Virus record (IMG/VR): IMGVR_UViG_3300045988_160639
Reading direction: 5' to 3' (one strand)
Origin: a virus
DNA: 64,000 bases
The translations under genes were made by a program, and so were the position numbers. Positions 5,801 through 37,662 of the stretch are shown piece after piece. Each line of letters starts with the position of its first letter. Within the stretch, counting starts at the first letter, position 1. The notes below the pieces were generated by a model. That model searched no databases. It was not told where the DNA came from and saw only the letters and a program-made list of their open reading frames with translations.

Positions 5801-5998
5801 ATGATTAACACATCGGAATTTTCAACTATTCTTACTGGATTATTCAGTGGGAATAGAGGAGAGGCACAACAAGCTGCGGAGATCATCCGATATGACAATA
5901 CATTTAGTCTAGAAGAATACGACAGAAGAAAACAGGATCGTTTAAATTATGAGGCGATGAAATTCAGCAAAAGCCTTGATTATCACTTTATAAAGTGA
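5801..5998 (+). CDS. Hypothetical protein
   Basis: The ATG overlaps the upstream stop (TGATATG). Confidence 0.4.
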   Translation: MINTSEFSTILTGLFSGNRGEAQQAAEIIRYDNTFSLEEYDRRKQDRLNYEAMKFSKSLDYHFIK

Positions 5999-6054
5999 TA
6001 TAATTAAATGTAGTAGTGTATGGATAAAATCACGATTTTGTAGGAGGAATAGCA

Positions 6055-6153
6055 ATGGAAATTCTTGAGGGCTTACAGCGTTTACAGGTAATAAAAGACT
6101 TTAAGCGGGATAAATTTGCAATAAACAATAACGCTAAAGACATCAATAAGTAA
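6055..6153 (+). CDS. 32-aa mini-ORF carrying a ParB/DUF262-type motif (ILEGLQRLQVIKDFKRDKFAI)
   Basis: Strong SD AGGAGG 7 nt upstream. The motif resembles DGxQR...F.....F of the DUF262 proteins in this window. Confidence 0.4.
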   Translation: MEILEGLQRLQVIKDFKRDKFAINNNAKDINK

Positions 6154-6181
6154 ACGAAAATACATTGTAGGAGGAAATATT

Positions 6182-6376
6182 GTGAATAAATCAGAAATGG
6201 AAAAGAAGCTTGTGGAATATTTAGACGAAAGATATTCTTTAACGCTTGATATCAATGAGTCTATGTCTGTAAGAAGTGCAAATATGATATTTTACAACGG
6301 AGCGTGTACTGCCATTGCTCAAATCGGCAGCTGGGAACGCAAAGAAAACGGAAAACACATTGTAAAACTGAATTGA
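6182..6376 (+). CDS. Hypothetical protein
   Basis: SD AGGAGG upstream of a GTG start. Confidence 0.45.
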   Translation: MNKSEMEKKLVEYLDERYSLTLDINESMSVRSANMIFYNGACTAIAQIGSWERKENGKHIVKLN

Positions 6377-6408
6377 GATAAAGATACATTTTATAGGAGG
6401 AATTTATT

Positions 6409-6603
6409 ATGACTATACAGGACTTTATGGAATTGCTTATTGACGGAGATTCACAACACTTCAATGTCTATGACAACGAAAAGGAGGAAATTATATTTGA
6501 CGGATCTGGAAGTGAAATACCCGATGAATTTCTGGATGAGGAAGTTTCTTCTATGGATAATGTTTATGGTGATAACGATATTATTACGTTAAACATCAAT
6601 TAA
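6409..6603 (+). CDS. Small acidic hypothetical protein
   Basis: SD AGGAGG upstream of the ATG. Confidence 0.5.
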   Translation: MTIQDFMELLIDGDSQHFNVYDNEKEEIIFDGSGSEIPDEFLDEEVSSMDNVYGDNDIITLNIN

Positions 6604-6771
6604 ACTTGGAGCGTTTGACATGGAGAAATTAATGTAAAGAGTATGAAATAAGCTATTCCGCAAGCGGAAGCACACAACTTCCGCATATGCTCCAAAGTCT
6701 GCATGATGACAGAGAAGCAACCAAACAATACATAAACACAAAACCGAAGGCACTAACAGGAGGAATTTATT

Positions 6772-6979
6772 ATGAAAACAAAACAGGAACTTTTACAGAT
6801 GCTTTTTTTCAAAGCTGGCTGAACTTCAAGACTTGAACAAAAAAGGGTTTACCACTAAAACGGTTTGGGAAACAGCAAATCTTACTGCTAAACTTCAGGC
6901 AGAAATTACTTTACTTTATGACATTCTCGGTGAGGACGTTCCCGAAGAATACTGGGAGCAGATAGAAGAAGTGATCTAA
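6772..6979 (+). pseudogene. Small ORF interrupted by a frameshift in a T7 homopolymer (6803-6809)
   Basis: SD AGGAGG and the ATG at 6772 open a frame that stops after 16 codons. The +1 frame continues with a plausible ORF to 6979. Confidence 0.4.
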
Positions 6980-7093
6980 AAAGTTGTCCGAGCAGCTATA
7001 AACAGTCCATTAAGCTCGGAGCGTTTGGCAGTCTGAGTAAGGCTGTCAAGGTTGGAAAAATCAAAGTAGGAAAGAATATGGAGGAAATAAATT

Positions 7094-7234
7094 ATGTACA
7101 GGGTACTATATAAAGGTTTTAATGGAAACTTTTCAATGTCAGACGAAATGTCATTAGAAAAAGCACAAGAGTACAAACAGAAACTCATTAACGCACATTA
7201 TCCAGTCGTTTATATAATTCAGATTGTAGAATAA
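7094..7234 (+). CDS. Small hypothetical protein (46 aa)
   Basis: SD GGAGGA upstream of the ATG. Confidence 0.4.
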   Translation: MYRVLYKGFNGNFSMSDEMSLEKAQEYKQKLINAHYPVVYIIQIVE

Positions 7235-7256
7235 TTTGAAAGTGAGGAAAATAATA

Positions 7257-7424
7257 ATGACTAACGAAGAATTTGTAAAGCTGTACAACATGAAATTACA
7301 GGAACTTAAAGAGGAATGCAAAGAGCAGGTAAAAGATGGAGAACTTACGGAAGAGGAAGCTGCATTTCGTTATGAAATGGTAAAGGATGAAATTTTATGG
7401 ACGATGCCTGACCCTGTAGAATGA
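7257..7424 (+). CDS. Small hypothetical protein
   Basis: SD GTGAGGA precedes the ATG at 7257. Confidence 0.45.
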   Translation: MTNEEFVKLYNMKLQELKEECKEQVKDGELTEEEAAFRYEMVKDEILWTMPDPVE

Positions 7425-7621
7425 AAACTTCGTTTTATCGGAAGAAAGGACGTGTAGGAATGGAAGGACTAGAGAAACTTACTGGTAAACAGATCATTGA
7501 TTATTTTACAAATAAAATAGCAGAAGAAAGAGGTATTCCAAAGCTGTTAGCACGGAAAATAGTTGTCATCGTTATGGCTAATGAAATTAATAAACGGCTC
7601 GGACTTTTTCACGGAATATAA
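7421..7621 (+). CDS. Hypothetical protein
   Basis: ATGA overlap with the upstream gene. Confidence 0.4.
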   Translation: MKTSFYRKKGRVGMEGLEKLTGKQIIDYFTNKIAEERGIPKLLARKIVVIVMANEINKRLGLFHGI

Positions 7622-7666
7622 AGGTGATGTGGAAATGAAATAGTTTAATGAAAGGCGTAAATAATT

Positions 7667-8164
7667 ATGGAAATAAAAGATTATATTAATTTAAAAAGTC
7701 GTTTGAATCATAATTTAACAAATGACGGAATTAACAATCGTGACTGGCACAAGAATGATGATGCTGTTTTATTTTTTGGACTTAAATGTTCAAAGTGCGG
7801 ACATACAGAAAAATTACAGTATCAAAACACTAAATCTAATGAAAATTTTGAAAAGGATTTTTCAGAACTTAAATATAAGGTTTCTTTATGGCTTTGTAGT
7901 GATGATGGAAAATTCCTTTGTCCTAAATGCTATAATGATTTTATGTTTAAAAAATCAGAAGAAAAAAGAAAACATTGTTGCTTATGGTGCGAATATAGTT
8001 GGATTGAAGAAGATATTTTAAAGTGTTATCTGCATCAAAAACAAGTTTCGTGTAGTGAATGCTGCGATGACTATATTAAAGCACATAGAGACAGAGATCC
8101 TGTAAAACAAGAAGAATTAAGAGAAAATTTTTATAAAGAATATTGTAATAAATCAGGTGAATGA
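7667..8164 (+). CDS. Cys-rich (multi CxxC) putative zinc-binding protein
   Basis: CSKCGH, CPKC, CLWC and CSECC motifs. Confidence 0.55.
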   Translation: MEIKDYINLKSRLNHNLTNDGINNRDWHKNDDAVLFFGLKCSKCGHTEKLQYQNTKSNENFEKDFSELKYKVSLWLCSDDGKFLCPKCYNDFMFKKSEEKRKHCCLWCEYSWIEEDILKCYLHQKQVSCSECCDDYIKAHRDRDPVKQEELRENFYKEYCNKSGE

Positions 8165-8224
8165 GGAACTATAATGGTAACTATCGTATTTATTAAATAT
8201 AGGGGATATTAAGGAGATGTTAAG

Positions 8225-8791
8225 ATGAACGAATATGAAACGTTACATATAGAATTTCATGCAGCTGGAGAATGTGATTCTTTAAATATCAATTTTAAAA
8301 ATTTAGGTTGGTTTTATGATACAAAAACTGGCATCGCAATATATAAGAAATATATTGAAGCTGATTTAAAGGTAGGTACAATATATGATTTTACATATGA
8401 AAACGAGGATGATTTAGTTATATACACTTATGTGGTTGTAAAGAAGGAAAATAATATCTATTATTTGGCTGAATATTATCATAATAAATTTTATAAACCA
8501 CAAGAAAATCATTTAGGAGAAAAGTGGATTAAGTGTGATGTAGAAAAGAAATTTGATATTAATTTAGAGAATTTTGTTGTAGAAGTTACAGAAAAAGCAC
8601 TTGATGGCGTGGAAATAACAGGTTATAATAAAGGAAAAATTGACGGAATAAAAGAACTTGTAAAAGAATTAAAACAACATTCTTGTTTTTATGATTTTAT
8701 AAATTATATAAGTTTTGAAGCTGTTGACATAGAAGCTATAGACGAAATAGCAGAAACGATGATAAAGAAAATTCGAGGTGAAAACAAATGA
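8225..8791 (+). CDS. Hypothetical protein, first gene of a three-gene operon
   Basis: Conserved RBS context AAGGAGATGTTAAG-ATG; ATGA overlap with the next gene. Confidence 0.6.
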   Translation: MNEYETLHIEFHAAGECDSLNINFKNLGWFYDTKTGIAIYKKYIEADLKVGTIYDFTYENEDDLVIYTYVVVKKENNIYYLAEYYHNKFYKPQENHLGEKWIKCDVEKKFDINLENFVVEVTEKALDGVEITGYNKGKIDGIKELVKELKQHSCFYDFINYISFEAVDIEAIDEIAETMIKKIRGENK

Positions 8792-9321
8792 CTGGAATAA
8801 AAAGATTTAGCGATATACCACAATTCACAAGAGACGGAGCGTGGGAATGCAACTTTGATATAGAAGGCATTGCCCGTTGGATAAAGCAAGAGCAGGAAGA
8901 ATTAGGCTTACAGCTTAATCCTAAATTTCAGAGAGGACACGTCTGGACAGAACAACAGCAAATAGCATTTCTCGAATATTTCTTTCGTGGTGGAAAATCA
9001 GGGTTGGTATGCTATTTCAATAAACCCGATTGGAATATTCACGTTCCCGATGAAGCATATAATGAGTATGTTTGCGTTGACGGATTACAACGAATTACAG
9101 CTTGTCTGAGGTTTGTCAATAACGAAATCCCTATCTTTGGACGTTATTATAAAGACTTCGAGGATAAACCAAGAATGAGACATACATTAAGGTTCAATGT
9201 CAATGATCTAAAAAACGAAAAGGAAGTTTTGCAATGGTATATTGATATGAACGCAGGTGGAACATCTCATACATCGGAAGAAATTGAACGTGTAAAAAAG
9301 ATGATTGAGGAACTGGAATAA
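8788..9321 (+). CDS. DUF262 (ParB/Srx-fold) domain protein with no nuclease domain
   Basis: FQRGHVW...VDGLQRITACLRF motifs. Confidence 0.7.
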   Translation: MTGIKRFSDIPQFTRDGAWECNFDIEGIARWIKQEQEELGLQLNPKFQRGHVWTEQQQIAFLEYFFRGGKSGLVCYFNKPDWNIHVPDEAYNEYVCVDGLQRITACLRFVNNEIPIFGRYYKDFEDKPRMRHTLRFNVNDLKNEKEVLQWYIDMNAGGTSHTSEEIERVKKMIEELE

Positions 9322-9344
9322 TTTAATGAAAGGTGGGTTTTATT

Positions 9345-9788
9345 ATGTCAAATGAAAATAGAGTATATCAAATATCGTGTCCAAATTGCCATCACGAGTG
9401 GAGTTATAGCGGAAACTATTATTCTCAGAAAATAAAACAATTAGGACATGACATTGAAGAAATAAATAATCAAATTTCAAAAAATAAAAAGCTTCCAGAA
9501 TGCAAAAGAAATAAGGAGTGGGAAAAAAGTGCTATTGAAGCAAAAAATATAAAACTTAAACAGTTAAAAGAACTTAAAGATATAAAATCTCAATATAATA
9601 TTGAAATGAATATGAATATCTATGAATGGTTCAAACAGCTTGTTAAGGATGAAATTGGAGAAAAACGTTATAAAGAACTTATTGAACAAGCTGATAAAGA
9701 AGCAAGAGCATATAGTATAAATACTATTGCAAGAACAACATATTCAAGAAAGGACGGAAAGAATATTATTTCAGTAACTAAGATATAA
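9345..9788 (+). CDS. Zinc-ribbon plus coiled-coil protein
   Basis: CPNCHH near the N-terminus, then a Lys/Glu-rich heptad-like region. Confidence 0.55.
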   Translation: MSNENRVYQISCPNCHHEWSYSGNYYSQKIKQLGHDIEEINNQISKNKKLPECKRNKEWEKSAIEAKNIKLKQLKELKDIKSQYNIEMNMNIYEWFKQLVKDEIGEKRYKELIEQADKEARAYSINTIARTTYSRKDGKNIISVTKI

Positions 9789-9841
9789 TAAAACGCAAGT
9801 TCTATGAATTTGCAAGTGAATAATAAAATAGAACTTTCCTC

Positions 9842-9870
9842 TTGACAAATTGGGAAAAGCGTGATAATAT
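9842..9870 (+). promoter_or_regulatory. Promoter TTGACA-N17-TAATAT with an extended -10 TG
   Basis: Hexamers at 9842-9847 and 9865-9870. Confidence 0.6.
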
Positions 9871-9909
9871 TAAATTATCATTACTTTTAATTTTGTCAGG
9901 AGGATTTTT

Positions 9910-10923
9910 ATGGATAAATTTAAAATGTACCAAAAAGGTATCAGCATTAAATCCCTTTACAATATGTACTATGAAGATGTTCCCGAGGTTGACTTCACGG
10001 ACGATATGCAGCGTGGAGAGGTGTGGAGTAATACCCGAAAATCTCTCTATATTCATTCAATCTTACTGAAGATTACCGATGCACAGTCCCCATTTATTGC
10101 AGGTGTAAGGGAACTTCCTAACGGAAATACTCTCCTGAAAATCTTTGACGGAAAGCAAAGAGGAACAACCATAATCCATTATATAGACGGAGATTTTGCC
10201 CTCACGGGACTGACAAACGAGCCTGATATATACCTCAACGGAGAACCCGTTAAGCTTCAGGGCAAGCGTTTTAAGCAGCTTCCTCCCAAACTCCAAAGCT
10301 GGATACTTGATACAACTCTGAACGTTTCTATAATAGAAAATGCTACACCCGAGCAGGAATCCCTTATTTTTCGCAGACTTAATAACGGAAAAACGGTTAG
10401 TAAGTTCGATATCGCCCGTTCCTATAAGCAGGGAATGGAAGATATCAAGGAGCTTACCAGCCACGAGCTGTTTAATGTAATGCTCACCTCAACGGAAAGA
10501 AAAGCCCTTAAACAGCAGGAAATCATAATCAGATCGTGGATAGCTCTCTTTGAGGAAGAACCAAACCTCACTCCAGCTCATGTCAACGAGGTTATGAAAG
10601 TCCTCAGTATTGATGCAGACGAAAGGGAACAGCTTAAGTCTTCATATGATTTTATATTTGAAGCATATAAGCTTATGGCAATAGAGAAGGAAAATTCAGA
10701 TATCATCAAACTGATGTTTAAACCAACTCATCTTATAGGATATCTGCCTTATCTGGAAAAATTTGATACCCCAGATCAGTTTGCAAAATGGACTGGAAAA
10801 TTCTTTGGTAATATGCCCGAAGAATATGCTTCTCTCGTCAGAGAACATACCACAAGCCCCACAAGCATAAAAGCAAGAAGAAATATTATAGAAAAATCTA
10901 TCAATGAATTTCTTGGAAAATAA
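9910..10923 (+). CDS. DUF262 (ParB/Srx-fold) domain protein
   Basis: MQRGEVW...FDGKQRGTTIIHY motifs; SD AGGAGG. Confidence 0.7.
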   Translation: MDKFKMYQKGISIKSLYNMYYEDVPEVDFTDDMQRGEVWSNTRKSLYIHSILLKITDAQSPFIAGVRELPNGNTLLKIFDGKQRGTTIIHYIDGDFALTGLTNEPDIYLNGEPVKLQGKRFKQLPPKLQSWILDTTLNVSIIENATPEQESLIFRRLNNGKTVSKFDIARSYKQGMEDIKELTSHELFNVMLTSTERKALKQQEIIIRSWIALFEEEPNLTPAHVNEVMKVLSIDADEREQLKSSYDFIFEAYKLMAIEKENSDIIKLMFKPTHLIGYLPYLEKFDTPDQFAKWTGKFFGNMPEEYASLVREHTTSPTSIKARRNIIEKSINEFLGK

Positions 10924-10939
10924 TTTTTCACAATAATAA

Positions 10940-10975
10940 AACCGTCACTCAATTAAGGGTGACGGTTATTTTTTA
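10940..10975. terminator. Bidirectional intrinsic terminator
   Basis: AACCGTCAC/GTGACGGTT stem followed by ATTTTTT. Confidence 0.7.
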
Positions 10976-11324
10976 TAAATTCGGAAAATTGGTTTAAGAC
11001 CGTTTGTTCATAAGAGGATGTGAAGAAATCATTCCGGTGATATAGTAATTCAAGTCGTCTGGAACGAATTTTAGCTGCCCTTTCAGGAATGTGACACATA
11101 TTTATGAGGTCTTCTATTTGATGAATATTACAAGCCCATAAAACGCACGCAGGAGCGAGAATATTTATTCCAAAATAATCTGCCTCGGTTTCATCTAAAG
11201 TTGGAATAATTATATGCCCAAACTCGTGAGCAATAATGAATCTTTGTTGATAAAACGGTTCAGAATCATCAACAATAATATAGTTTTTACTGGATTTGTT
11301 TAGGGTTGTAAAAGATTTCCCCAA
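10953..11324 (-). CDS. ImmA/IrrE-family zinc metalloprotease; homology seems to extend upstream to about 11501 without a canonical start
   Basis: HEFGH (HExxH) motif. The open frame upstream encodes an ImmA-like N-terminus and is stop-free to 11519. Confidence 0.7.
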   Translation of the reverse strand: MGKSFTTLNKSSKNYIIVDDSEPFYQQRFIIAHEFGHIIIPTLDETEADYFGINILAPACVLWACNIHQIEDLINMCHIPERAAKIRSRRLELLYHRNDFFTSSYEQTVLNQFSEFIKNNRHP

Positions 11325-11555
11325 CTCTAAAGGCTTTAGCTTGGCAAAATTATTGCTTGGAATATTGGAATTTTTTATAATGTCGGTGTTATAATTTACA
11401 CATAAGGGTATAAAATCTAAAGGTAAAGTTTTTATTTTGCAATCAATGAGGCATTGACAAGCTCTGTCTCTTGCACGTACATAATCTTTATACGGAGAAA
11501 TAAAATCACCCTTAGTTAGAATTTGTAACTAAGGGTGAAATATGTTTGGAAATAA

Positions 11556-12278
11556 TTATTTAGAAAAATCATTATTGGAAATAGGAAGAGAACTTAAAGA
11601 CTGAATGTCATTTGATGTAATCTTTCCAATAGTATTGTCAGGTGTCTTTGCAGCTTCCTGAATGATCTCATCAGAATTTTCATCATATGAGCCAACAACT
11701 TTTCCAAATACGGAAAATTTATCGGTATCGTAAACTTTAATAACTGGATAATCTGAATTTATTGAGTGTAAGCCATCATGTTCATATATTTTGAAATAAG
11801 GACTACCATTTAAAACAGCAATAACTTCATCACCATATTTGACCTCAGTAGTTTGTTTTACCCAAACGATGCTTCCGTGTGGATAATCTGGAGACATTGA
11901 ATCGCCGTTAATACGTATTCCGCAGTCAGCGTTTGACGGAATAATATCGTCTGGAAATTCTATTTCTTCAAAAGCATTATTTAAATAAAAATTAGTTGAT
12001 ATTCCTGCTCCAGCTGCAACTATAGCAATAGGAAATAATTTTTTATTACAAGATGTGCAAGTTATTTTGGAAATATCAGGGATATAACTGAGAATGTCTG
12101 ATATATCACATTTAAAATAATCGCACAACTTATTCAAGTTTTCAACAGAATAAGTTTTAGATTTGCCAGTTTCCATATCAGAAATCGTTTGTTTTCTAAT
12201 TTTAATGCTTTTGGATAATTCTTCTTGAGATAATTCATTATGGTTAAATCTCAGTGTTTTTAAATTACATTTAATCAT
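11556..12278 (-). CDS. CI/LexA-like repressor (N-terminal XRE HTH plus C-terminal S24 peptidase)
   Basis: HTH segment QEELSKSIKIRKQTISDMETG; S24 motif GDSMSP with a downstream Lys. Confidence 0.8.
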   Translation of the reverse strand: MIKCNLKTLRFNHNELSQEELSKSIKIRKQTISDMETGKSKTYSVENLNKLCDYFKCDISDILSYIPDISKITCTSCNKKLFPIAIVAAGAGISTNFYLNNAFEEIEFPDDIIPSNADCGIRINGDSMSPDYPHGSIVWVKQTTEVKYGDEVIAVLNGSPYFKIYEHDGLHSINSDYPVIKVYDTDKFSVFGKVVGSYDENSDEIIQEAAKTPDNTIGKITSNDIQSLSSLPISNNDFSK

Positions 12279-12348
12279 AGTGTTACACCTCTTGTATAAA
12301 ATGGATAAATTGTTATGGATAACTTTATATATTATTTATCCCAAAATA

Positions 12349-12390
12349 CACGAAATTCGTATTGACATTATGCGAATTTCGTGATATACT
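12349..12390 (+). promoter_or_regulatory. Promoter TTGACA-N17-TATACT embedded in an 11-bp inverted-repeat operator
   Basis: CACGAAATTCG (12349-12359) pairs with CGAATTTCGTG (12373-12383). The -35 is at 12362-12367 and the -10 at 12385-12390. Confidence 0.6.
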
Positions 12391-12534
12391 TAATACATAC
12401 CAAAGAGATGCAGAGATGCAAATCCTTAGTATTACATAATAACATATTTCAATAAAAAAGTCAAGTAGTAAGAAAGGAAGACAACGATGTGATATTATAA
12501 TTTACATAATAATAGGAAATCGCACTAAATCGAC

Positions 12535-12563
12535 TTGATTTATTATCTGCATTGCAGTATAAT
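12535..12563 (+). promoter_or_regulatory. Promoter TTGATT-N17-TATAAT for a candidate antisense RNA
   Basis: Hexamers at 12535-12540 and 12558-12563. No coding ORF lies downstream on this strand. Confidence 0.5.
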
Positions 12564-12602
12564 AGATATAGTAGGTAATCTGATACATAATCAAAAGCAA
12601 AA

Positions 12603-12628
12603 GCTCCCACTACCCATAACGTGAGAGC
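12603..12628 (-). terminator. Minus-strand intrinsic terminator downstream of the small membrane ORF
   Basis: On the minus strand, a GCTCTCAC/GTGGGAGC stem is followed by TTTTGCTTTTG. Confidence 0.45.
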
Positions 12629-12651
12629 CACCCATACTAACGCTCTGGGTG

Positions 12652-12810
12652 TTAATCTATCGGTCTAATATCGACCTTGAATCCATTCTTTCCGAGACGA
12701 ATGGAGAAACGATGTTTCTTGTCATTCAGGCACATTTTCACGATAATTACGAGCGTTATTGGAATAACGATTGTGCCGAGTATGGACAGCAACGCAATCA
12801 AAACCTCTAT
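12652..12810 (-). CDS. Small hydrophobic peptide (49-52 aa), type I toxin-like; start ATA at 12810 or TTG at 12801
   Basis: EVLIALLSILGTIVIPITLVIIV is followed by the basic tail KMCLNDKKHRFSIRLGKNGFK. SD GGAGG lies 8 nt upstream of the ATA. Too short for the ORF track. Confidence 0.4.
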   Translation of the reverse strand: MEVLIALLSILGTIVIPITLVIIVKMCLNDKKHRFSIRLGKNGFKVDIRPID

Positions 12811-12892
12811 ACAAATCCCCTCCTCTGTAGGTAGTCAAACTGCCGTAAGTAATACGGGGAAAAGGGGTATATGGGTCTTCCAACTACTTTTG

Positions 12893-12921
12893 ATTATACC
12901 AGATTATCTACAAAAAAGCAA
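12893..12921 (-). promoter_or_regulatory. Minus-strand promoter TTGCTT-N17-(TGg)TATAAT for the small membrane ORF
   Basis: Reverse complement of 12893-12898 and 12916-12921. Confidence 0.45.
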
Positions 12922-12927
12922 GAAAAT

Positions 12928-12970
12928 AGTGCGGTTTGATAGAAAAATTGTCAGACCGCACTATTTTTAT
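12928..12970. terminator. Bidirectional terminator
   Basis: AGTGCGGT/ACCGCACT stem with T-runs on both strands. Confidence 0.6.
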
Positions 12971-12974
12971 TGTA

Positions 12975-13205
12975 TTATTTGTTAATTTTGTCAAGATTTG
13001 ATTTATCAGGTATATACTCCATTAAATCCGAGGGCTGGCAATTAAATAAAGCACACAACTTGTTTATGGTCTTAGCATCTAAACCTTTTGTTCCATTCTT
13101 TAATCCATAATAAGTTGCTTGTCCAATAAGACCTGTTTCTCGAATTTTTGTTGCCGTATAACCATGTTCTGTTAAAAGTTTAAAAAGTTTATCATAATTA
13201 AGCAT
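12975..13205 (-). CDS. XRE/Cro-C1-type HTH repressor (76 aa)
   Basis: ATKIRETGLIGQATYYGLKNG HTH. Its C-terminus DLMEYIPD is paralogous to that of the repressor at 11556-12278. Confidence 0.75.
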   Translation of the reverse strand: MLNYDKLFKLLTEHGYTATKIRETGLIGQATYYGLKNGTKGLDAKTINKLCALFNCQPSDLMEYIPDKSNLDKINK

Positions 13206-13215
13206 TTAATACACC

Positions 13216-13303
13216 TCACTCAAATGAGTGAAAAATCACCATAAAAATTCACTTAATTTTGTGAAATGTGTGTATTGAAATTCACTTAATTAAGTGATAT
13301 ACT
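13216..13303 (+). promoter_or_regulatory. Three TCACT-N6-AGTGA operators plus promoter TTGAAA-N17-TATACT
   Basis: Operators at 13216-13231, 13249-13264 and 13282-13297; -35 at 13275-13280 and -10 at 13298-13303. Confidence 0.6.
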
Positions 13304-13435
13304 TATATCAAGGTCAAATCATAAAGGATTCAAACCTTAGTCTTATATAATAACATATGTTCTGAGATTTGTCAAGCACCTTTCAGAAAATATGTTATTA
13401 TATAAGTAAGTAAAAATTCAAAGGAGGATATACAT

Positions 13436-14794
13436 ATGGCAAAGACAGCAAAGAAAAAAGATTACAATTCTATTGAAATCAATGGAACTGCTTATACCAT
13501 TGCAGAGCGTGTGAGAGAAGAATCTGATGTGCGGATGATTCCTTATTCAGTAAAAATGTATGTTGAAGAAGTTGACGATGGAGAGATTTGTCGTGATCCA
13601 CTTATACAGAGAACGGATGACCAGTGGACAAAAAAGCAGAAGTCTAAGTTGATTGAAGCTGTTTTACATAATAGACCTATCGGAAGTATGGCACTTGCCA
13701 AGGGTAGAGCTGAGAGTAAAAGTTATTCAATCACATCTCTCGTAGATGGATTGCAGAGAACCACAACACTTGTAGACTTTTATCACGATAAATTTGCTTT
13801 GGATAAAAGAGCATTACCTGTTGTGTGTAGATGTGTTGACGAAAATGGCAATGAACAAAAAGTTGAAATTGATATTGCAGGGAAAAAATATTCTCAGCTT
13901 TCTGATGCGATAAAGACATTCTTTAATAAATATAGTCTTACCACATATATGCACGAGGGCTTTTCTGATGAAGAATTGGACGACATTGTATTCTGTATGA
14001 ATAACGGAAAGTCTCCAAATGCTTATCAGAAAATACGTTTTGCTCTCGGTTCAACAATTATGCGTTCTTTGCAGCCAATTTGTGATAGCACACTTTGGGA
14101 AGATGTTAATGGTTGCAAGGCAAAAAATGACAGTATCCTTTGTTGTATAGTAAGAACTCTTATGATGATGACATTTTACAATTATAATAATCTTGGCTCT
14201 GCAACGATGACTAAGTTTGTAGATGATTTTGATGATTATGTAAAAGCATCGGATATCGCTAATCTATCTATACTCGTAGAGGAACTTGCGGAAATTAAGA
14301 TGAATCTGTCGGAAGAAGAATCTACAAGATTAGATTCTGTGACTATTCCACATTATATAATGAGTCTTAATTCGTTTAAGAGAAAGAACAAAACAGCCAC
14401 TGATTACAGAAACTTTCTCAATAAATTCTGGAGCAGTGATAATTTTGAACTGCTTACATCAAGCTGTGAATCTAATGGTAGCGGAAGTTCTCTGTATTCT
14501 GCTGAAATGGTAGAAGACAGACAGTATGCTATAGATGATTATATGGACGAATATCTTGATGAGAATGAGGGTGAAATAAATGGCGAAGAAAACGGCACTG
14601 ACGAAAGCGGAGCAACAGGAAATACTAACAACGGAGATAATGGAACTGAAACAGACATTATCTCAGACGTGTTTGACACTGAAATTGTGTCAGAGGATAG
14701 TGGAACTGGCAACTCGTCAAGTGGAATTGAATCCGAAGTCAATGAAGATGGAAACGTCCTACAGGGAAGTGGGCAAAGCTTTAGGTCAGCCTGA
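13436..14794 (+). CDS. DUF262 (ParB/Srx-fold) protein with a long acidic low-complexity tail
   Basis: IQRTDDQW...VDGLQRTTTLVDF motifs; tail rich in E, N, G, D, S and T. Confidence 0.7.
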   Translation: MAKTAKKKDYNSIEINGTAYTIAERVREESDVRMIPYSVKMYVEEVDDGEICRDPLIQRTDDQWTKKQKSKLIEAVLHNRPIGSMALAKGRAESKSYSITSLVDGLQRTTTLVDFYHDKFALDKRALPVVCRCVDENGNEQKVEIDIAGKKYSQLSDAIKTFFNKYSLTTYMHEGFSDEELDDIVFCMNNGKSPNAYQKIRFALGSTIMRSLQPICDSTLWEDVNGCKAKNDSILCCIVRTLMMMTFYNYNNLGSATMTKFVDDFDDYVKASDIANLSILVEELAEIKMNLSEEESTRLDSVTIPHYIMSLNSFKRKNKTATDYRNFLNKFWSSDNFELLTSSCESNGSGSSLYSAEMVEDRQYAIDDYMDEYLDENEGEINGEENGTDESGATGNTNNGDNGTETDIISDVFDTEIVSEDSGTGNSSSGIESEVNEDGNVLQGSGQSFRSA

Positions 14795-15311
14795 CAGAAC
14801 TGCAAGAGATTGTAAATGTGTCTTATCTTGTTATGATAAGCTTATCAAAAGTGAAATAAATGACAAGTGCGTCAATAAAGTTTTATCGGAAAATTCAACA
14901 TCTCAAGCTACAAAAGTAATTTCCGCTTTAAATTATTGCAGTGACGAAGATAAAACACTTTATCTCGACAACGAAATAAGTTCAACGGGACTTTATAAAC
15001 GCAAAGGGAATGTTGTTATTGTCGGTACTAAAGCAACAGATACAATGTTGGATAGAGCCAAGCGAATGAAGGACGATTCAGAAGAATCCCTTACGTTTGC
15101 AATGATAACAAGTATGTTCAAATCAGAAACTAAAAATTACATCGAATCTCTTAAAGATTATATTGAAATGGTGGATAGAGTTTCTGATAAGCAATATACC
15201 AAAAAAGAAGCCATAGCTGATATAACACTTACATTAAGTACAGTGGTAAATACAATAACTTCCTTAAAAGAAGCAATTATAGAAAAGTCTAATATAATAA
15301 TGGAGGAATAA
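14742..15311 (+). CDS. Hypothetical protein; the open frame extends back to 14580 and overlaps the previous gene
   Basis: ATGs at 14742 and 14748; no recognisable motif. Confidence 0.45.
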   Translation: MKMETSYREVGKALGQPDRTARDCKCVLSCYDKLIKSEINDKCVNKVLSENSTSQATKVISALNYCSDEDKTLYLDNEISSTGLYKRKGNVVIVGTKATDTMLDRAKRMKDDSEESLTFAMITSMFKSETKNYIESLKDYIEMVDRVSDKQYTKKEAIADITLTLSTVVNTITSLKEAIIEKSNIIMEE

Positions 15312-15405
15312 AATTATGGAATTTTCAGCACAGCCCAGTTGGACAACAAGAACGATCAACTCATCTCAGCTTAAAAGCAAACAGCCATATTAGCGTAAAA
15401 TTGAT

Positions 15406-16098
15406 ATGAAATTTATTGCTAAATGTGTTAAAGATTTCAATCTTAATAAGGTTGACCCTGTTCACGTTTCTTATCGAGACGGAAAGTATTACGTAATTGA
15501 TGGACAGCATACAGTCATTATTCTCGAAGCTGTTAACGAAAATAAGCCTGTGGATATTCAGTGTATTGTACATAAGGGAATGACCTATACTGATGAAGCT
15601 GATTATTATGTTGACCAGTATGAAAAGAAACATCGACATACATTTAATGAAATGACACTTGCTTCTTATGAAGCCGGCAGAGAACTTCCTTGTGAGCTTG
15701 CATTAAAAGTTTCTCGTGTTGGTGGTAGATTACCTTATGATAAAAAGACCACTACCGGAATGAGAATCAATGCAGTTAAAAAGGTGGAAATGCTATATAA
15801 GAAGGATTCTGATGATACTATTCTTGCCATAAAGTGTCTTGTTGAAGCGTATAACGGAAGAGAATCCAGTTTGCAGGGCGATATCATAGCAGGAACAACA
15901 GAGTTTCTCAAACTTTACGGAAATAATATCGTCACATCAAGACTTGTCAATGCACTTGCAAAATACACTCCTCAGATGCTCACAAATACAGCCAAGAACC
16001 TCAAGATGTCCTATCCTATTAACTGGACGGAAACTCTTAGAGACAAGTATAACGAGGTATCCAAGCGTGGTAAGATAAAGCCGATATACGGAATTTGA
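15406..16098 (+). CDS. ParB-like DGQHR-type domain protein; the gene probably begins at 15316, with an in-frame TAG at 15391
   Basis: VHVSYRDGKYYVIDGQHT motif. A strong SD GGAGGA and an ATG sit at 15316 in the same frame. Confidence 0.6.
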   Translation: MKFIAKCVKDFNLNKVDPVHVSYRDGKYYVIDGQHTVIILEAVNENKPVDIQCIVHKGMTYTDEADYYVDQYEKKHRHTFNEMTLASYEAGRELPCELALKVSRVGGRLPYDKKTTTGMRINAVKKVEMLYKKDSDDTILAIKCLVEAYNGRESSLQGDIIAGTTEFLKLYGNNIVTSRLVNALAKYTPQMLTNTAKNLKMSYPINWTETLRDKYNEVSKRGKIKPIYGI

Positions 16099-16138
16099 TT
16101 ATATAAATATAATACTTCTAAATGAAAGGATAATCACT

Positions 16139-16981
16139 ATGAACGCAGCTATAGCTTATAATTCAACAACAGCTAATATCATTGATATGTCGGGCAGAAA
16201 AAGCAGACGTAAGATATCTCAGAGACAAGTTGTTGTTACTGAGGTGGAAGCTCCTACTAATCATTCTGCCGATGCGTTTATGTGCGAAAATGATATCAAC
16301 GCTGTTATTCGTCAGTGTTTCAAAGAAAGAGCATATCATAAAATGGTAATGTTCATCTTCGGAATAAACACAGGCTATCGCTGTGGTGATATTCTTTCGT
16401 TTAAAGTAAAAGATGTAACAGATGAAAACGGAAACATTCTTGATGTTAAGTATATTTCTGAGCAGAAAACAGGCAAGGCAAGACCTGTGTATTTTAATAG
16501 GGCTGTAAAAACGGCTCTTAAATATCTTATTGATCGTAAGGGATTAACTTCTAAAAATTATCTTTTTAGAGGTGATGGAAACCGTAGAGCATATTTCGAT
16601 AAATTTATCTATGATAAATGCGGAGAAATTACAGATGTAATTACGACAGGGGAGAGGTACGATGAAAATGGCAATGAAAGAGAAATTGCTCCTATGACCG
16701 TATCGTCAGTGAGCAGATGGCTTAAAACAATAACACAAAAACTTAACATAGTGGGACATTATAGTTCTCACGCTATGCGAAAAACTTTCTGTGAGTTTAT
16801 CTCACGGAATTGGAATGATAATAGGAATGTAATGGTTGCTTGTGTGGCTGTAGCTCACGCCGATGTTGATACAACAATGAATCATTATATGACGGTAAAT
16901 CCATTGAAACTTCGTCAAAAATGGCTTGACCTTAATCTTGGACTGGAAGAATTTGAAAAGCTGTCTGGATATAAAATTTGA
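16139..16981 (+). CDS. Tyrosine recombinase (second one in the window)
   Basis: Candidate catalytic residues in GYRCGD, HAMRKTF, VAHAD and MNHYM. Confidence 0.8.
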   Translation: MNAAIAYNSTTANIIDMSGRKSRRKISQRQVVVTEVEAPTNHSADAFMCENDINAVIRQCFKERAYHKMVMFIFGINTGYRCGDILSFKVKDVTDENGNILDVKYISEQKTGKARPVYFNRAVKTALKYLIDRKGLTSKNYLFRGDGNRRAYFDKFIYDKCGEITDVITTGERYDENGNEREIAPMTVSSVSRWLKTITQKLNIVGHYSSHAMRKTFCEFISRNWNDNRNVMVACVAVAHADVDTTMNHYMTVNPLKLRQKWLDLNLGLEEFEKLSGYKI

Positions 16982-16995
16982 AAGGAATGATATAA

Positions 16996-17550
16996 ATGAC
17001 CGTTAAAGAATTTAGAGCATTGGCTCGGAAAAGTGGAAAAATAAGAAAGATACCGGTATCAATGATAAGAATGATAGAGAAGGTTCATTATAATAGCGAC
17101 CTCTCCCAGATACCTAGTCTTAACAAAGACAAAAATAAACTGTTGATAATATTACATGATAATAAGGACTGTACTTATAACCTTATCACGGGTTGGAAAG
17201 ACTATACTATTGCAATCAGAGATGGCATAAAGACTATAAATGCTGTTTTGGTAGATTCTGTCACCAGAGATAAATTTTATGCTGAATTGTCGGATAGTAC
17301 GGAATGGGTAACTCTTCCTGAAATAATAATTCCGTCCTCATTTAAGAAAAGTCCACCAAAAGAAGAAAAGTTACATAACACAATTATGAATATGAAAGAA
17401 GCATTGAGAACTAATACTATTTCAGAATATCTTGATACAAAGCCAATAACGATATCCAAAAATAACACACTTGTAGATGGATATACAAGATATTTGGCTC
17501 TCAAATTTATAAGATATCAGGGTAAATTTCCAGTAATAAGAAAGGATTGA
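16996..17550 (+). CDS. Protein with two ParB/Srx-like halves (IbrB-like)
   Basis: YNLITGWKDYTIAIRDG in the first half and TLVDGYTRYLALKFI in the second. Confidence 0.55.
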   Translation: MTVKEFRALARKSGKIRKIPVSMIRMIEKVHYNSDLSQIPSLNKDKNKLLIILHDNKDCTYNLITGWKDYTIAIRDGIKTINAVLVDSVTRDKFYAELSDSTEWVTLPEIIIPSSFKKSPPKEEKLHNTIMNMKEALRTNTISEYLDTKPITISKNNTLVDGYTRYLALKFIRYQGKFPVIRKD

Positions 17551-17552
17551 TA

Positions 17553-17807
17553 ATGGTGTTGCAGATAGGTAAATACAAGGTCAGCGATGACCTCAAGACA
17601 AAGCAGAAAGAAAATCCCATACTTGCAAAAGATGTTGCGACAGCTTTATATGCTCATATAACTGGAATGTGGGCTGAAAATGCAGCCGGACATTATGAGC
17701 AGGCGAAGAACGGTGAGAGAGTAACAGCTATATTTCCTACTGTCTGCGGAAATATCGTCATTGATACCCTTGCAGATCGTACACAAACAACAATTTCAAT
17801 GGAATAG
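17553..17807 (+). CDS. Hypothetical protein (ends in TAG)
   Basis: ORF follows a TGATAATG junction. Confidence 0.4.
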   Translation: MVLQIGKYKVSDDLKTKQKENPILAKDVATALYAHITGMWAENAAGHYEQAKNGERVTAIFPTVCGNIVIDTLADRTQTTISME

Positions 17808-17817
17808 GGATGTATGT

Positions 17818-18249: not shown

Positions 18250-18263
18250 TGGAGGAAAATCAA

Positions 18264-18644: not shown

Positions 18645-18648
18645 TACT

Positions 18649-18825
18649 ATGGATATAAGGAAGTTTCTTACAATGCTAACGGATAATGGCTTCACATTTC
18701 TCCGAAACGGCAGCGGAAGTCATCAAATATGGATAAATGCCAATGGGAATGTTTTCTCGTTCCTATACGGCAAGTCCGTATATAAGGGAATTGTGTGGCA
18801 ATTCAGACGAAGATTTTGTAAATGA
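18649..18825 (+). CDS. HicA-like toxin (58 aa, below the track cutoff)
   Basis: RKFLTMLTDNGFTFLRNGSGSHQIW matches the YcfA/HicA N-terminal signature, including GSH. Confidence 0.5.
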   Translation: MDIRKFLTMLTDNGFTFLRNGSGSHQIWINANGNVFSFLYGKSVYKGIVWQFRRRFCK

Positions 18826-18844
18826 CACGAAAGGATTGATGAAA

Positions 18845-19264
18845 ATGAGTATAGAAGGTATAAAAAATCAGTTGTCCCAATGTTTTAAAAACGGAAAAAT
18901 CGAATTTCTCACATTTATAGATGGTAGTAAAGTCAAACGCATATACACAAATATAAAAGATATTGATACCGACACCAGCGAAGAAACTCATCTCAATATC
19001 ACACCTCACAAAGAGAAGGTGGAATTTGAATTGATGAAAGGTAATAATATAGTATATATTATAGAAGATACATATGATAATATCCTTGGAATAGCCTTTA
19101 CACAGTGGTTCAAGCCAATTTTAAGAAATATTGTCAAAGATAAATACGAACTGGAAGGGAAGATAAGATCCGATGAATTAACAGGAACAGATTATTGTCA
19201 GATCAGAGAAGACGGAATATTGCTTTTTAACAATCTCTCTGAAATAATAGAATTTGCAATTTAG
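18845..19264 (+). CDS. Hypothetical protein in the hicB position, with no recognisable HicB motifs
   Basis: ATG 20 nt after the HicA-like stop; ends in TAG. Confidence 0.45.
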   Translation: MSIEGIKNQLSQCFKNGKIEFLTFIDGSKVKRIYTNIKDIDTDTSEETHLNITPHKEKVEFELMKGNNIVYIIEDTYDNILGIAFTQWFKPILRNIVKDKYELEGKIRSDELTGTDYCQIREDGILLFNNLSEIIEFAI

Positions 19265-19369
19265 ACACAAAATATAGTATAAATAAAAATATGTAAATGA
19301 TAAAATATAGATAATAAAACGTAGAACAACGGATTTACTGCTAATCTGAATGAAAGGAGAAAATAAAAA

Positions 19370-19795
19370 ATGATTGCTAATAGCTCAACTGATTTTAGAC
19401 ATTATGATAATAAGTATCATTCAACTGTGATGGAATATCACCGTGGCGATATTGTCTGGGTCGATTTTGGAAATACGGTCGGCTCAGAACAAGGTGATAT
19501 CCGTCCAGCCGTAATAATACAAAATGAAGTAGGAAATAAACACTCACCATGCCTTATAGTGGCTATCATGACCAGTAAGGAGAAAAAGCCAATGGTAACG
19601 CACGTAAGTATAAATCCATCTGTAGAGACCGGATTAACAAAGCCTACTACTGTAATGACAGAACAGATAAGAACTATTGATAAGAGCCGAGTTCTGAGCT
19701 GGGCAGGAAAGCTTGGTGAAAGAATGATGACTTGTATTGATAGAGCCATCGCTGCAAGCTTTGGTCTGGAAAATAATTCTGCGTATTCTGTATAA
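19370..19795 (+). CDS. MazF/PemK-family endoribonuclease toxin with no adjacent antitoxin ORF
   Basis: GDIVWVDFGNTVGSEQGDIRPAVIIQN...TVMTEQIRTIDKSR. Confidence 0.8.
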   Translation: MIANSSTDFRHYDNKYHSTVMEYHRGDIVWVDFGNTVGSEQGDIRPAVIIQNEVGNKHSPCLIVAIMTSKEKKPMVTHVSINPSVETGLTKPTTVMTEQIRTIDKSRVLSWAGKLGERMMTCIDRAIAASFGLENNSAYSV

Positions 19796-19801
19796 TTTAT
19801 C

Positions 19802-19830
19802 TTGACAAATCAGAAAGAAGATGATAAAAT
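19802..19830 (+). promoter_or_regulatory. Promoter TTGACA-N17-TAAAAT with an extended -10
   Basis: Hexamers at 19802-19807 and 19825-19830. Confidence 0.6.
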
Positions 19831-19860
19831 TGATTTAGTGAATATAGAAAGGACGATTAT

Positions 19861-20832
19861 ATGGTACCATACTTTGAAGAATATTGTCAGCATATTATTG
19901 AAAAGAATCCCAGTTTTGGTAATTACGCACTGAGGATATCGTGTTTAAACAAAGTAGAGAAAAATATATTTGATATGTCAGCCGAGGAAATTGCTGATGC
20001 TGTAGAAGCTGATAAAAAGAAAATTACTACTTTAAATGCTTTATACGGCGTTTTGTGTGACTATTACAGATGGGTAAATAAGACTTATGATTTATCCATA
20101 AAGGATAGTTTTTACGAAATCAATAGACTTAAAAGTATAGTATCCGATATAAAAACCGAAAGCGGTAAAGATGAATACTTTACTACTTTTTCAGAATTGA
20201 AACAGGCTTTAACTCAGGCAGAAGAGGATTATCTTATTCTGCAAGAATCTGAATTATCCGAAAAAATGTATGAAAGTTTAGTTGTGCGACAAAAGAAATT
20301 CAATGTATTTAATGTATTTCTTTGGGAGCAACTTACAACAGATGATATGATTTCTATTACATTGTCTGATGCAAGGAATATAATCAGTACCAAACAGCTG
20401 ACCGTCAACGGAAAGTCTATTGAACTTTCAGATGAGGAAATTCAGTTTATTGATGACCTGTATTCGGAAATATTAGAATTGCAAGCACAGGATGAGCAAA
20501 ATAGCGTAAAAAGACAGTATAAAAGAAAAACAAAGAATTGGACATATGATAATTTATTTAATTCCGAAAAGAAATCAAGTTTCGTAAATTTAAAGTGGAA
20601 CGCAATGGGGGCATTTATACAGGATGTGCGACTGGAAGCTCCCAATGTTAAAAAAGCAGGTATGTTCAATAAAATGTATCAGTATGAAAGAAAAAATGAT
20701 TATGTCTTTTCTGGAGACATGAATAGTGCAGAAACATATGCTCGGACATTCAATACTTCAGTGACCAAAGCATATCGTATGGTGAGCGAATACAATAAGT
20801 TCAGACAGAGTATTGAGAATGCAGAAAATTAA
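19861..20832 (+). CDS. Hypothetical protein (323 aa)
   Basis: SD AAAGGA; no confident motif. Confidence 0.6.
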   Translation: MVPYFEEYCQHIIEKNPSFGNYALRISCLNKVEKNIFDMSAEEIADAVEADKKKITTLNALYGVLCDYYRWVNKTYDLSIKDSFYEINRLKSIVSDIKTESGKDEYFTTFSELKQALTQAEEDYLILQESELSEKMYESLVVRQKKFNVFNVFLWEQLTTDDMISITLSDARNIISTKQLTVNGKSIELSDEEIQFIDDLYSEILELQAQDEQNSVKRQYKRKTKNWTYDNLFNSEKKSSFVNLKWNAMGAFIQDVRLEAPNVKKAGMFNKMYQYERKNDYVFSGDMNSAETYARTFNTSVTKAYRMVSEYNKFRQSIENAEN

Positions 20833-20903
20833 GAGAAATATGGAAGTGAAAATCACTTCCAATACATAAAGCAAAGCAAATAATAAAATATTTGCAAAAG
20901 CAC

Positions 20904-37646: not shown

Positions 37647-37662
37647 AAGAGGAGAACTGCAA

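Follow-up and report, generated by a model that had tools for sequence, protein, structure and literature searches.

Nuclease-free DUF262 and ParB-fold proteins in the immunity and early region of a large temperate phage of gut Clostridia, and their possible role as nucleotide-gated DNA binders

The 64,000-nucleotide stretch of IMG/VR record IMGVR_UViG_3300045988_160639 analysed here (the whole of it is called the window below) is part of a large temperate phage of gut Clostridia, with a genome of 100-135 kb and Oscillospiraceae-type hosts. Six open reading frames (ORFs) between positions 6055 and 17550, ORF1 to ORF6, had been proposed to encode proteins of the ParB/sulfiredoxin (ParB/Srx) fold. 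Profile searches and predicted structures placed five of them, ORF2 to ORF6, in the ParB/DUF262 superfamily, while ORF1 appears to be a relic without a profile match. It had also been stated that these proteins lack a nuclease or ParA-type partner, and this was borne out: no DUF1524 and no ParA/CbiA/AAA_31 domain was detected in any ORF scanned, window-wide at E <= 1e-4, and two matches to HNH_3 fall outside the cluster at 8.2-21 kb.

ORF2, ORF3 and ORF4 matched the Pfam profile GmrSD_N/DUF262 (PF03235) with 48.5, 36.2 and 54.2 bits, respectively, all above the cut-off of 33.2 bits. DUF262 domains carry three motifs, namely I (QRxxxW), II (DGxQR) and III (FxxxN) (PMC12065111), which were read by eye as FQRGHVW, DGLQR and YIDMN in ORF2, as MQRGEVW, DGKQR and FRRLN in ORF3 and as IQRTDDQW, DGLQR and FCMNN in ORF4, where motif I is one residue longer. 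The motif residues are among the invariant columns of the ORF4 family alignment, and the string DG.QR occurs exactly three times in the six-frame translation of the window, once in each of these ORFs, against 0.2 occurrences expected. ORF2 (8788..9321, + strand) encodes a minimal DUF262 protein of 177 amino acids (aa) with motifs I-III, which matched PHROG 1583 at 4e-27 and has 58 relatives in IMG/VR phages of 80-200 kb. Its start is overlapped by 4 nt by the end of a 188-aa ORF without a domain match (8225..8791, +), and it is followed by a 151-aa ORF (9333..9788, +) with weak matches, none of them supra-threshold, which judged by eye may have a zinc-ribbon and coiled-coil layout. These two ORFs accompany ORF2-type genes in two and three of 58 loci, respectively, indicating that neither is a conserved partner.

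The larger proteins of ORF3 (337 aa, 9910..10923, +) and ORF4 (452 aa, 13436..14794, +) both resemble NsnA, the sensor of the Menshen defence system, in which DUF262 is joined to a helical ParBDB-type domain. Against the PADLOC model of NsnA, ORF3 scored 95.1 bits (1.2e-27) and ORF4 91.5 bits (1.6e-26), the matches spanning both domains (profile positions 41-311 of 385); both also matched PHROG 2598, ORF3 at 7e-29. In an AlphaFold2 model, ORF4 is folded up to residue 378 and disordered from 379 to 452, and this tail of 74 residues contains 17 Asp and Glu against a single Lys or Arg. No extra folded domain follows the helical domain in the model, and no nuclease domain was seen. When compared with the Protein Data Bank (PDB) by Foldseek, the model matched BrxU best (2e-4), followed by ParB proteins and SspE. 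Among 147 homologues of ORF4, PF03235 was the sole domain in all but one, which adds PF12632. Searches of the PDB by phmmer with the single sequences of ORF4, ORF5 and ORF6 yielded nothing useful.

Longer ORF4-type DUF262 proteins of 750-765 aa, with an N-terminal extension of about 240 aa and also with an acidic linker and an extra C-terminal domain, could be observed in related phages; they are found in loci L018 (9335-11587), L143 (8236-10506), L110, L114, L115, L145, L149, L157-L159 and L163. The extension scored 19.6 bits with Sigma70_ECF, below the Pfam cut-off of 21.1, and matched LuxR-type helix-turn-helix (HTH) proteins and SigA among PDB profiles at E 0.1-0.3. As these matches are sub-threshold, an identity as sigma factor was not adopted and was kept as a lead alone. 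The end of ORF4 is overlapped by the gene of a protein of about 189 aa, here called X (14742..15311, +), which is conserved downstream of ORF4-type genes and has homologues in L007, L016 and L091-L105. X did not match any family in the domain and family profile libraries scanned, and its N-terminus, read by eye, may be HTH-like. The idea that X is a split-off N- or C-terminal domain of the 750-765-aa proteins was discarded, since hhalign gave a probability of <1%.

ORF1 (6055..6153, +) is preceded by the ribosome-binding site AGGAGG and is the ORF next to a second promoter cassette described below. No Pfam profile matched this peptide of 32 aa, which aligns, with 44% identity, to residues 102-126 of ORF4 (E of 3e-5 in the pairwise comparison, 5e-4 in a search of the window) and was also called as a gene in L001-L004. 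By this alignment ORF1 is judged to be the relic of an ORF4-type DUF262 gene, comprising the region of motif II, and not a ParB-fold protein. The coordinates 15316-16098 had been assigned to ORF5, and its membership of DUF6551 (PF20188) was supported by 100.5 bits against a cut-off of 26.8 and by PHROG 1033, 'ParB-like', at 1e-8. The frame is, however, not open over this length. The N-terminal 25 codons (15316..15393, +) end at an in-frame TAG at 15391-15393, and the open part at 15406..16098 (+) comprises 230 aa of the 260-aa DUF6551 protein, including the motif DGQHT; this motif is shared by the ORF5 subfamily, whereas distant members of DUF6551 have DGQHR. The TAG replaces the Gln of a YQR motif whose Gln-Arg is invariant in an alignment of 27 members, and ORF5 is therefore probably inactivated in this lineage, a recent knockout being the simplest view of the sequences. 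In a comparison with loci from L001-L005, L007 and L091-L105, the allele, a C-to-T change, was common to the window, L001, L002 and L004, while CAG is present in 16 other loci (two siblings and 14 more distant ones). Recoding of TAG to Gln was not supported, because TAG is a rare stop (it ends two of the 78 window ORFs of >=80 aa), none of the four transfer RNAs (tRNAs) of the window has a CUA anticodon, readthrough of TAG across the window rescued no other long ORF and the allele is confined to one lineage. The DndB profile (PF14072) was not matched by any window ORF, and no Dnd-family Pfam domain was found in the window. An additional short ORF similar to the N-terminus of DUF6551 is present at 9339-9560 in L097, L098 and L105.

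ORF6 (16996..17550, +) encodes a protein of 184 aa with the motifs GWKDY and DGYTRY. It had no Pfam match, and its assignment to the ParB/Srx fold comes from an AlphaFold model (predicted local distance difference test, pLDDT, 86) searched with Foldseek. All PDB matches of the model had this fold (sulfiredoxin, ParB, Noc, KorB and pNOB8 ParB-N), the top entries being 6ky4, 7bm8, 7ol9, 7nfu and 5k5d, the last with a root-mean-square deviation of 2.5 A over 84 columns; a viral structure library likewise returned ParB/Srx proteins throughout. The ORF6 family profile matched 5k5d on the DGYTRY segment at E 0.015. Of the two ParB-like halves seen earlier in this protein, the C-terminal one is thus solid, while the N-terminal GWKDY module is based on sub-threshold ParB_N matches in five relatives; ORF6 is probably composed of two tandem ParB/Srx modules. 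An internal duplication was not retained, as hhalign of the two halves was not significant. There are 18 close relatives, and a profile search gave 206 representative clusters, mostly of 165-210 aa. Remote proteins combine the ORF6 module, by fusion, with a cold-shock domain and several HTH domains of the XRE type.

The genes are grouped around the region that controls lysis and lysogeny. All promoters, operators and terminators given here are consensus matches, from which binding and the timing of expression were inferred. On the minus strand lie a gene for an ImmA/IrrE-type metallopeptidase-like protein (10953..11324; Peptidase_M78, 26.3 bits), a CI/LexA-like repressor composed of an HTH and an S24 autopeptidase (11556..12278; Peptidase_S24, HTH_26, PHROG 4) and an XRE-type repressor of 76 aa (12975..13205; HTH_26, 48.6 bits). 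Three operators of the form TCACT-N6-AGTGA had been reported in front of ORF4 and were found at 13216, 13249 (with one mismatch) and 13282, 33 bp apart (span 13216..13297); the 76-aa XRE protein is their presumptive ligand. The third operator exactly fills the 17-nt spacer of the promoter-like site of the ORF4 operon, TTGAAA-17-TATACT with TG (13275..13303, +). A fourth, perfect operator was detected at 5983-5998 in a second cassette with the same layout directly before ORF1 (5976..6004, +), in which TTGATT is followed by 1 nt, the 16-bp palindrome TCACTTTATAAAGTGA and TATAAT. The cassettes at 5976 and 13275 are thus identical, and the ORF that comes first after either of them is of the DUF262 type. 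The heteroimmune loci considered for a co-variation of the ORF1-cassette operator with the repressor type did not include the corresponding region. No terminator was predicted on the + strand between 13.4 and 20.8 kb, and ORF4 is accordingly predicted to head a long early operon. The dedicated repressor switch of the original prediction was not supported in that form: the small repressor belongs to a two-repressor immunity region, the same cassette also precedes ORF1, and ORF4 is the head of a long operon. ORF3 is predicted to be a separate transcription unit, with a promoter-like site of its own (TTGACA-17-TAATAT with TG and without a spacer palindrome, 9842..9870, +) and a terminator-like hairpin directly 3' of the gene (10940..10967, +).

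Further elements were noted around these promoters. The ORF4 leader contains a 24-nt inverted repeat, 96% complementary with arms 17 nt apart (13342..13406), inside which a leftward promoter-like site is located (13375-13347, -). Divergent from the S24 repressor gene there is a rightward promoter-like site (12362..12390, +), a paralogue of the promoter at 13275 with a different palindrome, and within the region 12280-12970 the inverted repeat CACGAAATTCG...CGAATTTCGTG spans this site. The approximately 570 nt that follow it contain no convincing gene, yet are conserved in siblings; they are overlapped by two small hydrophobic ORFs on the minus strand (12461-12631 and 12652-12801) and closed by a bidirectional terminator (12922-12968). 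A search of the non-coding stretch at 12.4-13.0 kb against Rfam returned no family.

Downstream of ORF5 the operon continues with a recombinase and toxin genes, which had been named together with the XRE repressor in the original prediction; the recombinase and a PemK toxin were recovered, but the HicA-like toxin remained below the Pfam threshold. The tyrosine recombinase (16139..16981, +; Phage_integrase, 53.4 bits) has 280 aa and no N-terminal core-binding domain, its catalytic-domain match beginning at residue 49 of 280 and no SAM-like match being found. The catalytic R, K, HxxR, H and Y are all present (TGYRCGD, KTGKAR, HAMRKTF and AHADVDTTMNHY, aligned to XerA, 5hxy). Its gene adjoins ORF6, or an ORF6-like gene, in the window and in L011, while no ParB-like neighbour was found for the streptococcal phage 'integrase' proteins that it also matched. 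The HicA-like ORF of 58 aa (18649..18825, +), of which the N-terminal part matches, scored 22.3 bits with HicA_toxin (Pfam cut-off 27) and 9e-7 with PHROG 353, 'toxin', and was not called as a gene in metagenome records. A conserved protein of 175 aa (18737..19264, +) precedes the PemK/MazF-type toxin (19370..19795, +; PemK_toxin, 103.9 bits) and has weak family links to the pre-PemK proteins of L006, L011 and L016. It co-varies with PemK and with a conserved 323-aa protein and is a candidate antitoxin or regulator; no MazE or HicB family match was found among the ORFs neighbouring PemK and the HicA-like ORF. The 323-aa protein is encoded by the last gene of the module (19861..20832, +), behind a promoter-like site of its own (19802-19830) that is 74% identical to the one of ORF3. 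Its family is present in L006, L011 and L016, and it had no match in Pfam, PHROG, PADLOC, NCBIfam or the PDB. Length and position had suggested a degenerate recombinase similar to MrpR, an idea that was dropped because the family profile gave no significant PDB match.

The gene set recurs in other genomes, a point that had been named as a check. A neighbourhood conserved nowhere else, or a failure of profiles to place the proteins in the ParB/DUF262 superfamily, would have spoken against the original prediction, and neither was the case. In relatives with 36-52% identity, ORF4-type genes are again the first gene and divergent from a repressor, and they are followed by subsets of X, DUF6551, the recombinase with an ORF6-like gene, the pre-PemK protein, PemK and a protein of 290-323 aa. 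ORF3-type genes are found near them, both types being present together in L006, L007, L011 and L016. The repressor facing the ORF4-type gene is of the S24 type in L006 and L016, whereas the heteroimmune siblings L091 and L097 have a different small XRE protein in the same position, with or without a ribbon-helix-helix-like ORF. In L011 the position of the repressor in other relatives is taken by an ORF3-type gene in divergent orientation, and two GAAC-N4-GTTC palindromes lie upstream of the ORF4-type gene (9761-9814), one inside the spacer of a TTGACA/TATAAT promoter and the other within the next 30 bp; they are the sole two in 21 kb, against 0.18 expected. We take this palindrome to be the core of the Gram-positive LexA box, which would fit direct control by LexA.

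A survey was made of the 5-kb neighbourhoods of ORF2-type genes in 56 IMG/VR loci from gut phages of 80-200 kb. The recombinase family was present in 42 of the 56 loci, PemK in 41, a small XRE/CI-type repressor in 35 and a further DUF262 gene of the ORF3/4 type in 23. The density of paralogues, which had been called unusual, is thus a trait of the clade. A gene set with a recombinase lacking the core-binding domain and PemK was found in dozens of gut phages of 80-200 kb, and the minimal conserved set, seen in L006, consists of DUF262, a 235-aa protein, PemK and a 294-aa protein. Among near-identical genomes the alleles are reassorted, at identities of about 60% for ORF4, about 55% for ORF6 and 62, 73 and 42% for the block of the 175-aa protein, PemK and the 323-aa protein. 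In L102, for example, ORF4 is 95% and the recombinase 99% identical to the window but ORF6 only 57%, PemK 73% and the 323-aa protein 42%, while in L091 ORF6 (99%) and PemK (100%) are almost or fully identical and ORF4 is at 63%. The ORF2 cassette is absent from the near-identical L004. The nearest relatives in bacterial genomes have 23-32% identity and stand beside XRE or S24 repressors, i.e. in prophage-like contexts.

The remainder of the window agrees with the assignment of the element. It has a G+C content of 33% with coding nearly all on the + strand, and it encodes AAA_24, a DnaB-like helicase, RecJ, a family B polymerase, RecD2, Gad1, an ATP-dependent ligase and a C5 methylase, as well as, by profile scan, NrdD, ThyX, dUTPase, NT5C and a deoxynucleoside monophosphate kinase. 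The Gad1 (anti-Gabija) homologue (37621-38679; Pfam, 1e-55) and the orphan C5 cytosine methylase (43424-44770; 2e-54) lie in the replication region. Profile matches in 59000-64000 revealed a complete integrase with arm-binding, SAM-like and catalytic domains and an HTH_17 excisionase-like gene (probably 62472-63638, -). A perfect inverted repeat of 25 nt lies at 62405-62477, and a reversal of the GC skew near 62 kb suggests that the prophage ends there. In 88 blocks of the metagenome collection there are contigs, most of them 50-200 kb long, that encode a protein identical to ORF4, and the same locus was found in IMG/VR viral genomes of 100-135 kb. Relatives sit in metagenome-assembled genomes of Oscillospiraceae and Clostridia from animal guts, and relatives are embedded in bacterial contigs of 290-334 kb. 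A YorF-family gene and the nucleotide-metabolism set are reminiscent of SPβ-type phages, and at the DNA level megablast of 8000-20900 gave no match in phage and plasmid collections. From gene content, contig sizes, relatives in host genomes and SPβ-like traits it is therefore concluded that the element is a large temperate phage.

Several other features were recorded in the window. NrdD scores in two ORFs, as does HNH_3, and NUMOD domains, which are typical of homing endonucleases, are present too, suggesting a homing endonuclease inserted in nrdD. Two Pistol ribozymes (2834-2905 and 6982-7056, +; 67.5 and 55.6 bits) and one twister ribozyme of type P5 (3307-3383, +; 39.6 bits) scored above the Rfam gathering threshold; they occupy intergenic gaps in the run of small + strand genes to the left of the cluster, one Pistol copy lying between ORF1 and ORF2. 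Four tRNAs, at 20989, 21134, 21458 and 21693, lie downstream of a perfect promoter-like site, TTGACA-17-TATAAT (20904-21774, +). By their anticodon loops they are, in this order, Gln-UUG, Lys-UUU, a UAA tRNA and Leu-CAA; the UAA tRNA has 74 nt and lacks a long variable arm. Only two of the four were reported by ARAGORN. The 13-mer AAGTAAATAATAA, allowing <=1 mismatch, has 11 copies in the window compared with about one expected, all on the + strand in intergenic gaps (2286, 2715, 9814, 20874, 25484, 26562, 39971, 40059, 43396, 52299 and 52735), one of them just upstream of the ORF3 promoter. The 13-mer could be a promoter or regulator site specific to this phage, an idea comparable to the SPBRE of SPβ.

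As to what these proteins do, our tentative preference is that they are regulators or DNA handlers of the phage programme whose binding to DNA is gated by nucleoside triphosphates (NTPs). The ParB/Srx-fold proteins would bind DNA without cutting it and serve as NTP-gated switches in the developmental circuitry of the phage. Once the small XRE repressor, with the S24 repressor upstream of it, is lifted, the two identical promoters with an operator in their spacer would fire. ORF4 would be the first product and would act together with X, ORF5, the recombinase without a core-binding domain and ORF6. Jointly they would bind specific sites of phage DNA, set early transcription and the commitment to lysis or lysogeny, and handle the excised or replicating genome, whereas ORF3 would be a paralogue expressed separately from its own promoter. 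The columns of the nucleotide-binding motifs are among the most conserved ones, and the pocket is therefore considered to be under selection, which argues against dead decoys. The fold, the lack of a nuclease, partners of DNA-binding type, the first position after the switch and intact pockets lean towards DNA binders acting at induction.

Parallels to such a role exist. KorB, VirB and DndB are transcription regulators with a ParB fold, and together with Noc and the orphan ParB-CTPase proteins of phages they share the fold and the nucleotide motifs and do without ParA (PMC12704722). Phage ParB-CTPase-DUF6551 proteins are reported to bind cytidine or adenosine triphosphate (PMC12704722); Noc and KorB were among the structural matches of ORF6, and ORF5 is a member of DUF6551. 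The HTH domain and the parS-type sites of these regulators were, however, not found here. A second parallel is the yopP-yopQ-yopR module of SPβ, in which the ParB-fold protein YopQ, scored by Pfam as DndB at 7e-16, is encoded between two proteins with a recombinase fold, YopP and the master repressor MrpR (PMC8612738, PMC10516654). SPβ is also a large temperate phage of Firmicutes, with XRE regulators beside the module and a separate true integrase (PMC8612738, PMC10516654), and lysogeny does not require YopQ (bioRxiv 10.1101/2021.11.22.469490), just as this lineage seems able to dispense with ORF5. The window differs in that its genes follow the divergent small repressor instead of preceding it. 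MrpR is no longer catalytic and retains the core-binding domain, whereas the recombinase of the window keeps the catalytic residues and has no core-binding domain; the Pfam domains of MrpR (MrpR_N_CB and MrpR_C_cat) were matched neither by the recombinase nor by the 323-aa protein.

A number of observations weigh against this interpretation. BLASTP, tblastn and hhalign showed no sequence similarity to YopP, YopQ or YopR of SPβ, so that the parallel is architectural only, and no cognate DNA site was identified for any of the proteins. The nonsense allele of ORF5, the variable occurrence of the ORF2 cassette in near-identical genomes, the decayed paralogue ORF1 and the swapping of alleles at 42-63% identity between near-identical backbones are traits of accessory conflict genes and not of core regulators. 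The best PADLOC defence model for ORF3 and ORF4 is that of a defence sensor, PemK and the HicA-like toxin are located in the same operon, the sigma-like similarity of the extension in relatives is below threshold, and the timing of expression is derived from consensus promoter, operator and terminator matches only.

Several of these traits would fit an exclusion or abortive-infection module, in which NsnA-like DUF262 proteins sense foreign or modified DNA and signal to the ribonuclease (RNase) toxins of the operon, in the manner of Menshen but without NsnB and NsnC. We regard this as rather unlikely, though it deserves to be taken seriously. ORF3 and ORF4 match NsnA over both domains at 1e-27 and 2e-26 and share with it the motifs I-III and the helical ParBDB-type domain, and the effectors of Menshen are mostly RNases (PMC12065111). 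PemK is located <=5 kb from ORF2-type DUF262 genes in 41 of 56 loci, the minimal set of L006 retains DUF262 and PemK, ORF3 resembles a moron with its own promoter and terminator beside immunity genes, and conflict genes typically show shuffled alleles, decay and presence/absence polymorphism as seen here. A nuclease-less DUF262 protein is moreover a required partner in the two-gene type IV system GmrS1 and GmrSD2 of E. coli ECOR17 (PMC12373910); the window and the related loci examined, however, contain no DUF262-nuclease partner. Likewise, neither the NsnB transducer, the NsnC effector nor another PADLOC component was found in the operon, the genes lie in the early and immunity region of a phage and not in a bacterial defence island, and ORF4 adds an acidic disordered tail. 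ORF4, ORF5 and ORF6 stand behind repressor-controlled promoters (apparently controlled by LexA in L011); they are accordingly expected to be silent in a lysogen, the state in which defence by a prophage normally operates. The linkage to PemK may be the mere shared synteny of one clade, and we know of no case in which a DUF262 protein is functionally tied to a MazF toxin. A combination of the two ideas, a network of several paralogous NTP switches across a whole clade of 80-200 kb phages of gut Clostridia that is wired to the SOS and immunity switch and coupled to the recombinase and RNase toxins, with NsnA-like sensors controlling toxin activity or early transcription at induction by a Menshen-like logic without NsnB, NsnC or a nuclease, is doubtful. 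The families involved are known, but the arrangement itself was not described in the literature searched.

The absence of a nuclease could also mean counter-defence, the DUF262 and ParB-fold proteins being decoys or dominant-negatives against GmrSD/BrxU, SspE, Menshen or Dnd, or coats on the phage DNA that are helped by a DNA-mimic-like tail of ORF4. The DUF262 NTPase domain is shared with GmrSD, BrxU and SspE, BrxU being the best structural match of the ORF4 model and SspE listed too, and the nuclease half of these enzymes is missing here, as ORF4 is disordered after residue 378 and ORF2 consists of only the 177-aa domain. ORF4 is the first gene of an operon for induction or infection, and anti-defence genes are often placed early in phage operons. 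Its disordered tail has 17 acidic and one basic residue in 74, Gad1 (1e-55) and an orphan C5 methylase are other counter-defence genes of the phage, the diversification of alleles is in line with an arms race, and anti-defence roles have been suggested for phage ParB-fold fusion proteins (PMC12704722). A passive decoy would, however, not need strictly conserved nucleotide-binding motifs; no close host target is evident, the relatives in bacterial genomes being 23-32% identical and in prophage-like contexts; and no inhibitor of this kind was described in the literature searched, so that we consider this explanation improbable. Least likely of the roles listed in the original prediction is partition, that is, plasmid-like maintenance of an extrachromosomal prophage by ParB-fold centromere binders, with the recombinase resolving dimers and the toxins PemK and HicA providing addiction. 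Large phages of Firmicutes are commonly phage-plasmids, and a catalytically complete recombinase, ParB-fold genes and toxins do occur in one operon. In contrast to ParABS, with which the fold of the ParB/Srx N-domain is shared, no ParA-type (CbiA/AAA_31) ATPase was found in a scan of the ORFs that was not aimed at partition NTPases of the TubZ and ParM types, no protein reached the canonical ParB_N threshold and no repeated parS-like palindrome was found. The integrase of the phage is complete, including the arm-binding domain, and an excisionase-like HTH_17 gene is present as well, its relatives are found inside bacterial contigs of 290-334 kb, and ORF5 appears dispensable in this lineage, all of which makes plasmid-like maintenance very improbable.

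What is known of DUF262 comes almost exclusively from nuclease-based defence enzymes, in which it forms the sensor half, and the orphan ParB-fold proteins of phages were catalogued in 2025 with no function assigned (PMC12704722). The present locus is conserved and genetically tractable, combining nuclease-free paralogues that have intact pockets with a first-in-operon position, a shared operator, a recombinase and toxins, and natural allelic swaps as well as a natural TAG knockout of ORF5 are available. Resolving the role of these proteins would give PHROGs 1583 and 2598 as well as DUF6551 a function and would bear on YopQ of SPβ. It would also show whether ParB-fold switches are regulators, exclusion sensors or decoys in abundant gut phages.

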